Shown here: piece after piece, positions 4,278 to 64,000 of the stretch
Layout of the letters: each line of letters opens with the position of its first letter
Position numbering within the stretch: the first letter of the stretch is position 1
Origin: an uncultured Melioribacteraceae bacterium
GTDB taxonomy: Bacteria; Bacteroidota; Ignavibacteria; Ignavibacteriales; Melioribacteraceae
Direction of reading: 5' to 3'
Assembly (NCBI GenBank): GCA_964584325.1
Contig: CAZOZP010000004.1
Location: 3,559 to 67,558, forward strand
Length of the DNA stretch: 64,000 nucleotides
Translations under genes and position numbers: made by a program
Notes under the pieces: generated by a model
The model's database searches: none
What the model was told of the DNA's origin: nothing
Seen by the model: the letters and a program-made list of their open reading frames with translations, nothing else

Positions 4278-5309
4278 TTATACGCCTAATGTAGTTCCTT
4301 CACCTCTTAAATCTTTAACTGCCTGAATTACTCTGTCTTTCATTCCGGTTTCAGCTTTCTTCATATAACCTCTTGGGTCATAGTATTTCTTATTACCGAC
4401 TTCCCCGTCAATTTTTAGAACTCCGTCGTAATTCTTAAACATATGCTCAACAATTGGTCTAGTGAAGGCATATTGAGTATCTGTATCAACATTCATTTTT
4501 ATAACACCGTAATCTAGCGTTTCTCTGATCTCTTCAAGTGAAGATCCGCTACCCCCGTGGAATACAAGGAAGAATGCAGCTTCAGGTCCGTATTTTGCAA
4601 CAACCGCATCCTGACCTTCTTTTAATATTGATGGTTTTAATTTAACATTACCCGGTTTATATACACCATGAACATTTCCAAAAGTTGCGGCAAACATAAA
4701 TATTGCATCTTTAATTTCTGAGAGTCTTTCATGAACATACAACATATCTTCCGGAGTCGTATAAAGTTTTTCAGCAGGAGTACCCTCATTGTTTATACCA
4801 TCTTCTTCACCACCGACAACACCGGCTTCAACTTCAAGAATAATTCCAAGTTCTTTACATTCTTGAAGAAGTTTAACAGCTATGTCCATGTTTTCTTTTA
4901 TTGGAAGCTCGCTACCATCGAACATATGTGAATTAAATAAGGGTTTTTCACCTTTTTCAACTCTTTTTCTTGATTCAGCTATAAGGGGAGCAAGAAATGA
5001 ATCAACTTTCTTTGCTTGACAATGGTCTGTATGCAGTGCAACATTTATAGGATATCTATCTGCTACAAGATGGACATGCTGAGCTATTGAAATAGCACCA
5101 AGAGCAGCATCTTTTACTAACTGTCCTGAAGCAAATTCTCCACCACCGGTGGAAACCTGAATAATACCGTCTGATTTTGTCTCTGCAAGGGCTTCAAGAA
5201 CTGCATTTGCTGTTGTTTCTGATGTTACGTTGATTGCCGGATATGCAAATTTATTTTTCTTTGCATTCTGGAGCATTTGCAAGTATTTCTTACTGTCAAC
5301 TACTGGCAT
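4278..5309 (-). CDS. fbaA: Class II fructose-1,6-bisphosphate aldolase
   Basis: 343 aa. YAYPAINV, HTDHC, FHGGSGS and MNVDTDTQ blocks of class II FBA. Confidence 0.9.
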   Translation of the reverse strand: MPVVDSKKYLQMLQNAKKNKFAYPAINVTSETTANAVLEALAETKSDGIIQVSTGGGEFASGQLVKDAALGAISIAQHVHLVADRYPINVALHTDHCQAKKVDSFLAPLIAESRKRVEKGEKPLFNSHMFDGSELPIKENMDIAVKLLQECKELGIILEVEAGVVGGEEDGINNEGTPAEKLYTTPEDMLYVHERLSEIKDAIFMFAATFGNVHGVYKPGNVKLKPSILKEGQDAVVAKYGPEAAFFLVFHGGSGSSLEEIRETLDYGVIKMNVDTDTQYAFTRPIVEHMFKNYDGVLKIDGEVGNKKYYDPRGYMKKAETGMKDRVIQAVKDLRGEGTTLGV

Positions 5310-61228: not shown

Positions 61229-64000
61229 TCATTTGACCGAACCTTCAATGATTGCAATTTCCTCTTCGGTTAGGTCGTAGAGTTTGTAAACAAGTTGGTC
61301 AATTAGCTTTTCTAAATCACTCGTGTCGGTTTTGGGATCGGCTTTTTTGGTAGAGAGAATTTGATCGACATACCGTTCGATTTGATGAACGGTTGGCTGG
61401 TTTTCGGGGGTGATAGGGGGAATGGGGATTCCTTCGAAGAATATTTTACTTAATTCCCTTGTTCCACCTTGTAATTCTGGGCAATTTTCTTTTATCCATT
61501 TATAAGAAATTCTTGAATTAAAGTATCCAGTTAAGTATCTTAGACATTTTCCTGTAACTATAAAACATTTTTGATTCGTGTAAAAATTATTTGAATCAAA
61601 TAAAAATGGTAAATATTTTGTCATATTTGGATATATTATTTTCTCTTTCTCAAATTCTTCGTAATAACAAATCTGATCTTGAGTTTCAAACCATTTATTC
61701 CCAGTTTTCTTTCTTGAGGTTGTACCATCAGGTAATTTTTTACCTACTTGTTCTAAACGCTCTTTTCCAAAATCTAAAAGATATTTTTTAACAGCAGGAT
61801 ATTTGTCTATAACAATTTTTAATGCAGGAAAAATTGCAATAATCCAAAGCCCCGCCCATTCGTAACTGTACCGTTTTATATCTCTACCTCTGAGAATCGG
61901 CTTTAGAATCTCGGCACTCTTCGGGTCTTCGGCACAAAGCCGTTCCTTTGTAGGTGTATCAATAATAAAAGCTTCGTTCAAGCCGGTTAAAACACCACGA
62001 TAAATATTTACATCCCAATCTTTAAGCGGTTTGCCGATTCTTTCAATCTTTTCTTTCAGTTGCTGTTCGGCGTTACTGCCGATAAACCACGAGTCTTCAT
62101 TCAGATTGCTTAACAATACCGCACGCTCGTTTACAAATTTTGCAAGGTTATTATCCTTTGCCTTGCTGTCTAAAGTTACAGCAGACAGTTGTTTTTGATT
62201 TTTCTCATTTTGAATCAGCAATATATTCACATCCACAGTCGCATTTTCAAATACACCCGGACCGCAATCAATCAGCAATTCAGGATTATAAGAAATAAAA
62301 AACTTCCGCAGCGATTTTCCATAACCAGCCCGCATCCACTTATTGGAAGTAATAAAACATAGATGACCGCCGTTTTTTAAGGCTTTAAGTCCCATTTCAT
62401 AGAACAAGGCATAAATATCACCTGTTCGTTCAAAAGTTGCATACCCGCATTTTTTAAACATATCGGCAAGTTTACCGCCGTCTTTTTGAAGCTGCACATA
62501 CGGCGGATTCCCAATCACCACATCAAATCCATCCTCAATCCCGAACATCCATTCCGAGTCAAACCATCCGCTTGAAACATTCTGATTATACGGATCCCAG
62601 GATGCAAGCTGGCGCGCACTTTCATTGCCCCAGCCAGACCGCACAAGCAAAGCACCCATTTCTTCACGAATGCGCTGGTCTTCTTCGCGGAGTTTTCTTT
62701 TTGTTGCAGGTGTCTTGGCAGAAAACAAGCGATGGCGAATATCTTTCAATTTAATTTCCAGCGCTTGTACTTGCGGATTGTCAAAAAGACTCGCCTGTTC
62801 TTTTGGCTTTTCTATGCCAATCAATGTATTTGACGCAACAAATTTGGTTTCAAGGTTAGGAAGCGGGCGAATGCCGAAGTTATTATGTTCATCGTTGGCA
62901 AGGATGCCGACGGTACATTTCTGGTCAACAATCAAAGATATAAAAAAACGGAGTTTGCTGATTTGTGTTGCGATGGGCTGAATATCCACGCCGTAAATAC
63001 AGTTCTCAATCAGATAAAGCTTCCGTCCATAATCAAGTTCGTTACTTTCAAACGCCTTTTCAATATCATCAATCAATTTGTCCCGAATTTCAGAATCGTC
63101 TATTGCCTGTGCCTTTTTAATCTGCCTTTCTTTCCAAAGTTTATTGTTCGGGTCAAGCTTATGAAGAATATGAACCAACTTATGGAGTATCCCCATAGGG
63201 AAAGCGCCGGAACCGCAAGCAGGGTCGAGAATTTTACAGTTATCAATAGCATTGATAAGAACTTTAGTTTCTTCTTCGTTAAATGGATTTTGATTTTCAG
63301 AATAGGAGATAAGATCACTCAAACGCTCTTCAAAAAGCTCCCCTCCTGAAAAGGAGGGGTGGCAGACGAAGTCTGACGGGGTGGTTGTTGTTTCTCGTGC
63401 AAACTCTTTTTTTACTGTATCCAAAAGCCATTCAACATTTTCAAAAACAACTTTATTTTCAAATCTTAAAACTTTTATACCTGTAGCCTGAAGAAATATA
63501 TCTCTTTCCCGATCATATTCTGCTTGAACAACATTATTGTGAACTTCACCATCCAATTCAATTGCAAGTTTTTCCGATGGACAATAAAAATCAAGAATGT
63601 AATTAGCTACACTGTGTTGTCGTCTGAACTTACGCCCTCCGATTTGCGAATTTTGTAAATATGTCCAGAGCTTTGCTTCTGCCGGCGTTAAATTATTTCG
63701 TAGTTTTTTGCGAAATGTTTTTAAATGAGGCAGGTTGTTAATTTTAACCACCCCGCCGCTTTGCGACACCCCTCCTTGAAAAGGAGGGGAACTTTTTTCA
63801 AGTTTCTGTTTTAAATAAGCCTTTAACGATTCATCAACCATATAATTGACGATTTCACGGGGCGTATAAAAACTGCCGGTCTGTTTTCGTGCGGTGGTTT
63901 TGGTTTCGGGATTGTAACTTGCAAGTAGGTTTTCAAAAACACGACCTAAAAGTTCAGGATCAAGAGCAATATCTTCTTCAATAGGTGTGTTTTCTGTAAC
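61229..64000 (-). CDS. PglX/Eco57I-type (type IIG-like) N6-adenine DNA methyltransferase with specificity domain, 5'-truncated by the window edge, carrying an in-frame DUF559 insertion
   Basis: The reading frame stays open upstream of the tracked ATG. 64000-63842 translates to ...ELLGRVFENLLASYNPETKTTARKQTGSFYTPREIVNYMVDESL. Downstream are ILDPACGSGAFP (motif I), VIGNPPYVQL (motif IV), FITSNKWMRAGYGKSLRKF and a TRD-like C-terminus. Confidence 0.85.
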   Translation of the reverse strand, partial: VTENTPIEEDIALDPELLGRVFENLLASYNPETKTTARKQTGSFYTPREIVNYMVDESLKAYLKQKLEKSSPPFQGGVSQSGGVVKINNLPHLKTFRKKLRNNLTPAEAKLWTYLQNSQIGGRKFRRQHSVANYILDFYCPSEKLAIELDGEVHNNVVQAEYDRERDIFLQATGIKVLRFENKVVFENVEWLLDTVKKEFARETTTTPSDFVCHPSFSGGELFEERLSDLISYSENQNPFNEEETKVLINAIDNCKILDPACGSGAFPMGILHKLVHILHKLDPNNKLWKERQIKKAQAIDDSEIRDKLIDDIEKAFESNELDYGRKLYLIENCIYGVDIQPIATQISKLRFFISLIVDQKCTVGILANDEHNNFGIRPLPNLETKFVASNTLIGIEKPKEQASLFDNPQVQALEIKLKDIRHRLFSAKTPATKRKLREEDQRIREEMGALLVRSGWGNESARQLASWDPYNQNVSSGWFDSEWMFGIEDGFDVVIGNPPYVQLQKDGGKLADMFKKCGYATFERTGDIYALFYEMGLKALKNGGHLCFITSNKWMRAGYGKSLRKFFISYNPELLIDCGPGVFENATVDVNILLIQNEKNQKQLSAVTLDSKAKDNNLAKFVNERAVLLSNLNEDSWFIGSNAEQQLKEKIERIGKPLKDWDVNIYRGVLTGLNEAFIIDTPTKERLCAEDPKSAEILKPILRGRDIKRYSYEWAGLWIIAIFPALKIVIDKYPAVKKYLLDFGKERLEQVGKKLPDGTTSRKKTGNKWFETQDQICYYEEFEKEKIIYPNMTKYLPFLFDSNNFYTNQKCFIVTGKCLRYLTGYFNSRISYKWIKENCPELQGGTRELSKIFFEGIPIPPITPENQPTVHQIERYVDQILSTKKADPKTDTSDLEKLIDQLVYKLYDLTEEEIAIIEGSVK
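63340..63789 (-). mobile_element. DUF559 (Vsr-fold endonuclease-like) cassette bounded by hairpin-forming terminal inverted repeats, inserted in frame in the methyltransferase gene
   Basis: Core reads LTPAEAKLWTYLQNSQIGGRKFRRQHSVANYILDFYCPSEKLAIELDGEVH...KVLRFEN, the DUF559 signature. Ends are CCCCTCCT-loop-AGGAGGGGTG-(small hairpin)-GGGGTGG at 63340-63384 and the reverse complement at 63747-63789. No Met codon inside the cassette. Confidence 0.7.

Follow-up and report, generated by a model that had tools for sequence, protein, structure and literature searches.

An in-frame DUF559 nuclease cassette bounded by double-hairpin modules in a type IIG restriction-methyltransferase gene of an uncultured Melioribacteraceae bacterium

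Introduction

The ShiLan insertion in an actinophage DNA methylase gene (PMC11855218) is the closest published precedent for the element reported here. Our element is a cassette encoding a DUF559 nuclease, which is embedded in frame in a restriction-modification (R-M) gene of an uncultured Melioribacteraceae bacterium. The gene lies on contig CAZOZP010000004.1 of assembly GCA_964584325.1, of which positions 3,559-67,558 (64,000 nt, forward strand) were analyzed and are hereafter called the window. An initial annotation, made from the sequence of this window, had pointed out the cassette and read it either as a small mobile element that preserves the host open reading frame (ORF), similar to a miniature inverted-repeat transposable element (MITE) or a homing element, or as a recruited nuclease domain. 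Our analysis indicates that the segment is probably one copy of a widespread, selfish, ORF-preserving nuclease cassette with homing-like spread, and not an ancestral or recruited domain.

ShiLan resembles the cassette in several respects. It is inserted in a DNA methyltransferase gene, is stop-free in the host frame, lacks intein and intron features and is disjunct among close relatives; it also encodes a nuclease and, by prediction, loops out from the fold of its host. The nuclease of ShiLan, however, is of the HNH type and is encoded in another frame with its own GTG start, whereas the DUF559 of the window is a domain in the host frame. Hairpin end modules do not appear in the abstract or discussion of its description. 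ShiLan is described from Mycobacterium phages, and some matches to its HNH nuclease come from other phages and from prokaryotes, whereas the DUF559 cassettes span many bacterial phyla and several host genes.

A relationship in fold exists with the EDxHD or Vsr-like homing endonucleases, represented by I-Bth0305I (PMC3239194, PMC2677866), whose structure 3R3P is the second-best structural match to our nuclease; Vsr, DUF559 and I-Bth0305I were grouped together within PD-(D/E)XK by Steczkiewicz et al. (PMC3424549). These endonucleases also target DNA-metabolism genes and have hairpins upstream of their ORFs. Their genes, however, reside within group I introns, lie between the two halves of a split intein or stand free and fracture the host gene, and are not read through in the host frame. 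These enzymes possess extra DNA-binding domains, and their sequence similarity to the window nuclease is undetectable. Rickettsia palindromic elements (PMC10969869) are palindromic repeats regarded as selfish, which lie in frame in unrelated protein genes and add a peptide at tolerated positions. They are enzyme-free and ~150 bp long, whereas the modules of the cassette bracket a conserved nuclease, and they are reported in unrelated genes for metabolism in Rickettsia genomes rather than in R-M genes. The repetitive extragenic palindromic (REP) sequences of the REP/REPIN-RAYT system (PMC3337134) share with our modules an asymmetric hairpin with a conserved short head and the occurrence as solo units, inverted doublets and arrays, and the enzyme gene is typically flanked by cognate repeats. 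Membership in this system was rejected; RAYT is a tyrosine transposase of the HUH (Y1) class whereas the cassette enzyme is a Vsr-like DUF559 nuclease, REPs are extragenic, and the repeat architecture alone is analogous. Inteins are likewise in-frame selfish insertions, often with a homing nuclease, that are concentrated in particular gene classes. The cassette differs from them in having no Hint splicing domain, and its retention in the mature protein is expected. Full-text literature searches were made for DUF559 bounded by hairpins and for insertions of DUF559 in a host frame, and neither was found described. The combination of a nuclease in the host frame, translated double-hairpin modules and recurrence in R-M genes across phyla was likewise found nowhere in the literature searched.

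Results

The host gene is read on the minus strand, and its N-terminal nuclease part and upstream side lie beyond the window, so that all residue numbers refer to a partial translation (Table 1). Pfam places Eco57I (1.5e-35), N6_Mtase and TaqI_C domains around the embedded DUF559, and the best PADLOC match is REase_MTase_IIG (PDLC03596, E 2.5e-175). The gamma-class N6-adenine motif NPPY is found at GNPPYVQ, and TaqI_C represents the specificity domain. By these sequence features the host is assigned to the type IIG restriction-methyltransferases of the Eco57I family. The initial annotation had compared the host with PglX/type IIG proteins, and PglX had to be dropped; the bacteriophage exclusion (BREX) PglX models scored far below their cut-offs (NF033452, 70 bits against 500), and the downstream neighbors are not BREX genes.

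The cassette is located between FYTPREIV and ILDPACGSGAF in the order FYTPREIVNYMVDESLKAYLKQKLEK / cassette / LFEERLSDLISYSE...ILDPACGSGAF, and the initial annotation was right in placing it within one uninterrupted frame. No stop codon occurs in the sense frame of the entire cassette. The initially assigned limits (63340-63789, 450 bp) hold for the span from hairpin to hairpin, although the translated cassette is slightly longer, and its DNA extends to 63336 once the outer AGCT head is counted. The lack of a Met codon was confirmed for all 152 residues; in-frame GTG codons are present, and a separate start at one of them is, strictly speaking, conceivable. The two ends are richer in G+C than the window (54-56% vs 33%); the initial annotation had noted such an excess over the host gene. 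Third-position G+C is 0.20 in the cassette core of the window and 0.35 in the host, which may be taken as a mild sign of separate histories. Across the family, this value correlates moderately between cassette cores and hosts (r 0.57).

Each end of the cassette consists of the same ~48-bp module in opposite orientations, which is composed of an A[AG][CT]T head, hairpin 1 (CCCCTCCT/AGGAGGGG), hairpin 2 and the tail GGGGTGGTT. The pattern CCCCTCCT-N(3-7)-AGGAGGGG gave exactly two matches in the 64 kb (63340-63359 and 63769-63789) and none in 100 shuffles. DNA folding of both ends significantly exceeded that of shuffled sequences, with z-scores of -2.6 to -4.2 (5′ module, -3.98 to -4.22; 3′ module, -3.46). 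In the gene frame the 5′ and 3′ modules encode the peptides SSPPFQGGVSQSGGVV and TTTPSDFVCHPSFSGGE, respectively. AlphaFold2 assigned a predicted local distance difference test (pLDDT) score below 50 to residues 66-86 in the case of the 5′ module and 204-216 in that of the 3′ module; the encoded Pro/Gly peptides are hence predicted to be disordered, flexible linkers of ~16 aa each. The 3′ module is nearly identical to the 5′ module of an HsdS-borne cassette in another genome (L004). A direct duplication of hairpin 1 was considered and rejected, as its loops are direct in the window but inverted in most other elements.

The nuclease core matched PF04480 over profile positions 4-107 of 109 with an E-value of 7.4e-30 and 103.5 bits, far above the cut-off of 20.6, which places it in DUF559. 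The DUF559 crystal structure 3HRL was matched by sequence (E 1.6e-17). AlphaFold2 modeled the core with pLDDT values of 81-93, and Foldseek ranked 3HRL first (template modeling (TM) score 0.89), then the catalytic domain of I-Bth0305I (3R3P, TM 0.73-0.75), followed by AbaSI/PvuRts1I and a weak match to Vsr (1CW0). The model thus exhibits the alpha/beta fold of Vsr-like nucleases, and the insert is predicted to form an independent domain held on disordered linkers, as the initial annotation had envisaged. Residues D137, E148, D150, H154 and D163 are all present and form invariant columns in three independent alignments of relatives. The active-site residues of DUF559/Vsr-like nucleases therefore appear complete, and catalysis is predicted. 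The ratio of nonsynonymous to synonymous divergence (dN/dS) between cassette cores was 0.01-0.12, with dS often saturated. Such values show strong purifying selection on a nuclease with an intact active site.

The cassette is absent from the relatives of its host, which agrees with the insertion suspected initially. PF04480 was found in none of the 120 best protein homologs (51-63% identity), and the cassette in none of 47 further homologous metagenomic loci. In the latter the spacing is usually 59 residues, as compared with 52 + 152 in the window host. The alignment locates the insertion point in a length-variable loop between the helix after FYTPREIV and motif I. In the homolog P0135, the loop that corresponds to window positions 63338-63793 contains an 18-residue extra segment, SSCHYVSSCHSERSEESYDL, which looks as if translated from another family of repeats; several kinds of small insertion thus seem to be tolerated in this loop.

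Other copies are numerous. A word-indexed search with the 152-residue query gave 5,729 matches, many of which match the query in full (100%) and so extend over the end peptides (...NSPPSKGGVS.GRGG... and ...TTPS..TPPLEGGE...). When one genome per species was scanned, 80 genomic loci were obtained, nearly all from different genomes and spanning about ten phyla (Bacteroidota, Acidobacteriota, Ignavibacteriota, Nitrospinota, Nitrospirota, Desulfobacterota, Pseudomonadota, Verrucomicrobiota, Planctomycetota, Marinimicrobia and others). The cassette lies in frame within an ORF of 400-1500 residues at 45 of them, and the remaining ~30 are small free-standing genes. Complete genomes with cassettes include OZ253582.1, OZ260091.1, OY762428.1 and OZ244725.1. 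The Pfam families of the in-frame hosts are Eco57I (29), Type_ISP_C (5), Methylase_S (3), HsdM_N (3), IcmF-like mutase (2), urocanase (1) and ketoacyl synthase (1). About 40 of these 45 are R-M proteins, in which five sites are used recurrently (Table 1). Only three copies at the recurrent R-M sites break the frame (L001, L047 and L004), so that 45 of 48 gene-internal copies are in frame. By our reasoning, an element that is open in a single sense frame would by chance leave the host frame intact in no more than one of six insertions. These counts demonstrate a strong excess of in-frame copies and of R-M hosts. When 1.84 billion cluster representatives were searched independently with HMMER, 23,523 relatives were detected, and about half of the closest ones are embedded. 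Among 26 embedded representatives were HsdS (9), type ISP (4), Eco57I (4) and N6_Mtase (3), and the others included a class I tRNA synthetase, EPSP synthase, HPPK and SpoIIE; roughly 17-18 of the 26 are R-M proteins. Searches of plasmids and phages for this subfamily gave only distant DUF559 genes of at most 49% identity.

A few copies have unusual arrangements. In L052 (urocanase) and L053 (3′ end of a ketoacyl synthase gene), the order is module(R)-module(F)-DUF559-module(R), with another F module in L053, and a peptide of ~17-40 residues is consequently repeated on either side of the nuclease. A Thermodesulfovibrio host methyltransferase gene (L060) contains the cassette and perfect palindromic solo units of the form tail′-hairpin-tail at about 4280, 5624, 5663 and 6367. 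At least the unit near 4280 shifts the frame, and this host gene hence looks inactivated.

Gain and loss could be followed in the host family of site A, where 6 of 120 close homologs contain the cassette. The site-A loop was parsed in 114 sequences; 93 have an empty four-residue loop (KNxT), and 16 have mini-inserts of 7-30 residues, several of which are of the hairpin type. The filled alleles are scattered in the host tree, and for nearly all of them the nearest allele is empty rather than filled. The closest pair consists of P0283 (filled) and P0262 (empty), with 96% identity around the site (Table 1). Its flanks are mosaic, being ~99% identical beyond 400 nt rightward and ~90% elsewhere, with raised divergence in the first 50 nt right of the insertion. 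This indicates frequent recombination between alleles, and the direction of the event is unreadable from this pair. The presence/absence polymorphism among close alleles, which is incongruent with the host tree, is as expected from a homing gene. The window cassette is closest (77%) to cassettes of Cyclobacterium HsdM genes. Five other site-B cassettes of related hosts, which represent about four lineages, are 59-72% identical to it, and their hosts are 43-55% identical to the window host, i.e., more distant than its cassette-less homologs. Cassette phylogeny hence tracks the insertion site in part, yet crosses hosts. Homing elements display such a pattern, in which spread is mostly confined to one site and jumps are occasional.

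Two side observations concern site-A alleles. In the filled and empty alleles L134 and L135, the last ~1.2 kb, which is the specificity region, is ~99% identical as compared with ~90% for the rest; this suggests a recent exchange of target recognition between alleles, independent of the cassette. The empty-type allele P0243 (L086, 2971-3019) has an AT-rich 14-bp inverted repeat, AAACCTATAAGGTTT-CAG-AAACCTTATAGGTTT, exactly at site A, which adds 9 in-frame residues and is unrelated to the GC-rich modules.

The end modules were surveyed across the family, and 104 were parsed. Hairpin 1 occurs in four co-varying types, such as CCCCTCCT/AGGAGGGG and CCTCCCCT/AGGGGAGG, each of which is followed by hairpin 2 and then a G-rich tail, and the A[AG][CT]T head is invariably on the side opposite the tail. 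In 99 distinct segments from hairpin 1 to the tail, taken without preselection for pairing, a Watson-Crick stem of at least 4 bp was formed in 75%, as compared with 11% of shuffles; covariation of hairpin 2 is evident from these segments. The hairpin-2 loops are mostly GAA, GCA or GTA (64/104). GNA triloops stabilize DNA mini-hairpins, and, with RNA and single-stranded DNA compared as the level of action, the bias hints at DNA mini-hairpins. In free-standing copies the modules are kept upstream of the ATG, where 5-12 nt separate the tail (GGGGTGG or GGAGGTGG) from the start; in hairpin 1, an AAGGAGG arm is paired with an anti-Shine-Dalgarno-like arm, CCTCC. The upstream retention, the pairing of hairpin 2 and the GNA triloops suggest that the modules act at the nucleic-acid level. 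The hairpins are concentrated at the two cassette ends, and few others were present in about 470 kb of flanking sequence. Solo modules are also found in frame in the same loops of these host genes, so that the ends recur both with the same nuclease and without DUF559. The initial annotation described the ends as imperfect inverted repeats. This stands for the module as a whole, which is inverted, and has to be amended in one point; the ends are structural rather than sequence-identical inverted repeats.

Free-standing DUF559 genes of Chloracidobacterium, Kapabacteria and 'Aalborgicola' genomes lie inside tandem arrays of module units with periods of 50, 132 and 198 bp (Table 1). The arrays of L074 share one orientation on both sides of the gene. 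In several viral contigs, the modules point into downstream phage genes, like 5′ leaders.

Table 1. Features of the cassette and its host in the window, with recurrent insertion sites, a filled/empty allele pair and module arrays at other loci
Feature	Position	Strand	Details
Host gene, N-terminus outside window	61229-64000 and beyond	minus	single open frame, 923 codons including cassette
Whole cassette as translated	63338-63793	minus	S70-E221 of partial product; 152 codons, 456 nt; tblastn self-match 63793-63338
DUF559/Vsr-like PD-(D/E)XK nuclease core	63404-63721	minus	residues 94-199 of partial translation
5′ end module (gene orientation)	63746-63793	minus	head AGTT 63790-63793; hairpin 1 63769-63789; hairpin 2 63755-63767; tail GGGGTGGTT 63746-63754
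5′ module hairpin 2	63755-63767		GCCGC-TTT-GCGAC
3′ end module	63336-63386	plus	head AGCT 63336-63339; hairpin 1 63340-63359; hairpin 2 63363-63375; tail GGGGTGGTT 63378-63386
3′ module hairpin 2	63363-63375		CAGAC-GAA-GTCTG
Junction peptides of unspliced translation			KLEKSSPPFQGG and SFSGGELFEER
Site A			LRLWIELLKNAYY / cassette / ELQTLPNIDINIK
Site B	after FYTPREIV...ESL..YL		two methyltransferase families, one including the window host
Site C	HsdM C-terminus		
Site D	type ISP C-terminal domain		
Site E	HsdS coiled coil		
Empty allele DNA, P0262			TTATTACA / AGAACGCAACA / GAATTAGAA
Filled allele DNA, P0283			TTATTACA / TTAAAAGCTCC...GGAGGGGAGCTTAGA / GAGTTGCAA
Tandem module arrays, L074	2621-2863 and 3406-3679		
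Tandem module arrays, L078	2575-2914 and 4258-4729		
Tandem module array, L059	3387-4359		

Discussion

The cassette is best explained, in our opinion, as a selfish gene that would be copied from allele to allele in a homing-like manner; both the initiation of copying by the nuclease and the role of the modules in recognition or recombination are inferred from sequence patterns. A cassette landing in frame in a surface loop would be translated as an extra domain of the host protein, with the hairpin DNA encoding the Pro/Gly-rich linkers. The nuclease may nick or cut cassette-less alleles, or loci with a solo module, and repair would copy the cassette from the filled allele; this would amount to homing, for the most part at a single site in a given gene family. 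New sites might be reached by rare jumps, possibly with the conserved modules as short homology. Selection would then purge frame-breaking insertions, most strictly in the methyltransferase and specificity genes of R-M systems. The bias toward R-M hosts may reflect frequent exchange between strains, tolerance of the loops and strong selection against loss of the methyltransferase. The idea of a small mobile, ORF-preserving element put forward in the initial annotation thus gains from the absence in homologs, the recurrence and the predicted fold, and of its two variants the MITE-like one fits poorly. A classical MITE or terminal-inverted-repeat transposon was rejected, as hairpin 2 is mostly unlike between the ends and no duplication exists in the filled/empty pair.

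Several observations weigh against the selfish, homing-like cassette. The two ends of an element usually have different versions of hairpin 2, which makes recent transposition with end homogenization unlikely. A target-site duplication was sought in the 96%-identical filled/empty pair and none was found; 11 nt were replaced instead. A symmetric empty target or excision footprint (head-hairpin-head) was predicted, and none was found among ~270 hairpins, the solo units being asymmetric. For the window host itself, the closest relative in the metagenome scan is 69% identical, and filled/empty pairs are known only from other hosts. The saturated dS suggests that the cassettes are old residents, which would be unusual for purely selfish homing genes. 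Since the flanks are mosaic, the cassette could be spread by ordinary allelic recombination, with no need of the nuclease. A complete type-1 module is also present in 31 IMG/VR viral contigs (L136-L166), 30 of which have no DUF559 nearby; the modules are hence not dependent on the nuclease in cis. The sole viral contig with DUF559 is L137, where it lies between an inverted module pair.

These viral contigs lead to the question of whether the hairpin modules themselves are the mobile or amplifying entity, being REP- or MITE-like and propagated by a trans-acting enzyme or replication slippage. DUF559 would then be a passenger or merely bracketed, for instance by insulators or translation controls around a toxic nuclease. 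Besides the 30 viral contigs, such a reading could draw on the in-frame solo modules in the same host genes and loops, on the tandem arrays around some free-standing DUF559 genes, and on the AAGGAGG or anti-Shine-Dalgarno-like arms and the tail position 5-12 nt before the ATG of free-standing copies. It leaves unaccounted, however, the association of DUF559 with inverted modules across about ten phyla in all contexts and the rarity of the hairpins in the ~470 kb of flanks. Purifying selection on the nuclease is strong in embedded copies too, cassette lineages follow insertion sites as homing genes do, and no other transposase-like gene was noticed at the loci, where neighbors were not surveyed systematically. 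We regard module-driven mobility as unlikely, though it deserves serious weight.

The purifying selection just mentioned could also be read as a sign that the nuclease serves the host. It would provide the R-M enzyme with an extra activity useful to the cell, which might be nicking, the repair of damage linked to its own methylation or a second function in restriction, and the hairpins would be leftovers of its arrival. Vsr-type nucleases are functionally tied to DNA methylation (Dcm/Vsr), and this link, the strong enrichment in R-M hosts and the long-term selection with saturated dS are all compatible with an adaptive acquisition. The same cassette, however, is found in HsdS, the HsdM C-terminus, type ISP C-terminal domains, urocanase, an IcmF-like mutase, a ketoacyl synthase, a tRNA synthetase and EPSP synthase, and the window host already matches the type IIG restriction-methyltransferase model best. 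This tells likewise against the fusion by recruitment that the initial annotation had offered as its second option. Moreover, most alleles of each host family are without the cassette, filled alleles coexist with near-identical empty ones, the host frame is broken by some copies, and the model predicts disordered linkers with no conserved interface. Adaptive acquisition therefore appears quite unlikely, more so than mobility of the modules alone. Least probable by a wide margin is removal of the segment after transcription or translation, as an unrecognized intron- or intein-like element. The inverted ends might pair in the transcript and so join the host flanks, and the ShiLan insertion has raised the same question (PMC11855218). 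An intein was nevertheless rejected, since the Pfam scan of the host found no Hint family and the insert is fully accounted for by DUF559 and the two ~16-aa linkers. A group I or II intron was likewise rejected; Rfam covariance models over 63100-64000 detected no ribozyme core, and the scan at E up to 1 gave a single chance-level small-RNA match (best E 0.85, below the gathering score). These results uphold the initial statement that neither an intein nor an intron is involved. In addition, an intron has no need to be stop-free and in frame, a state retained by 45 of the 48 gene-internal copies, and conserved splice-junction residues were not apparent in the sequences viewed.

Returning to the homing-like cassette, a broader claim can be put forward tentatively. 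The family may constitute a phylum-spanning, previously unrecognized class of autonomous mobile elements, in which a Vsr-like nuclease would work together with REP-like double-hairpin modules of its own. In DNA these would be sites of recognition or recombination and, when translated, flexible linkers, and the element would persist as a permanent unspliced domain in R-M and occasionally housekeeping genes. If this is true, selfish nuclease genes can persist within protein genes without splicing, by means of an open frame and linker-encoding hairpins, across much of the bacterial domain. Next to inteins and introns, it would represent a third way of entering a gene without killing it. It would also explain many puzzling annotations as "DUF559" or "very-short-patch-repair endonuclease" and unusually long or split R-M genes in metagenomes. 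The cassette would mark specific loops of type IIG, type I and type ISP enzymes as permissive and offer a natural model of tolerated domain insertion, and a testable link would be established between a nuclease family of unknown function and dispersed GC-rich hairpin repeats.

Two minor observations concern the surroundings of the cassette in the window. The genes downstream of the host are housekeeping genes, namely ispG and genes for pyridoxal phosphate (PLP)-dependent enzymes. Outward T-runs, AGCTTTTT and AACTTTTTT, flank the outer hairpins (63336-63359 and 63769-63798) and score as intrinsic-terminator-like, one of them in the host sense direction. A general function of the ends as outward-facing terminators was rejected, as the window ends are terminator-like but the T-run is not conserved at other insertions. 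The putative terminator in the sense direction, if working, could lower expression of the downstream two-thirds of the enzyme.

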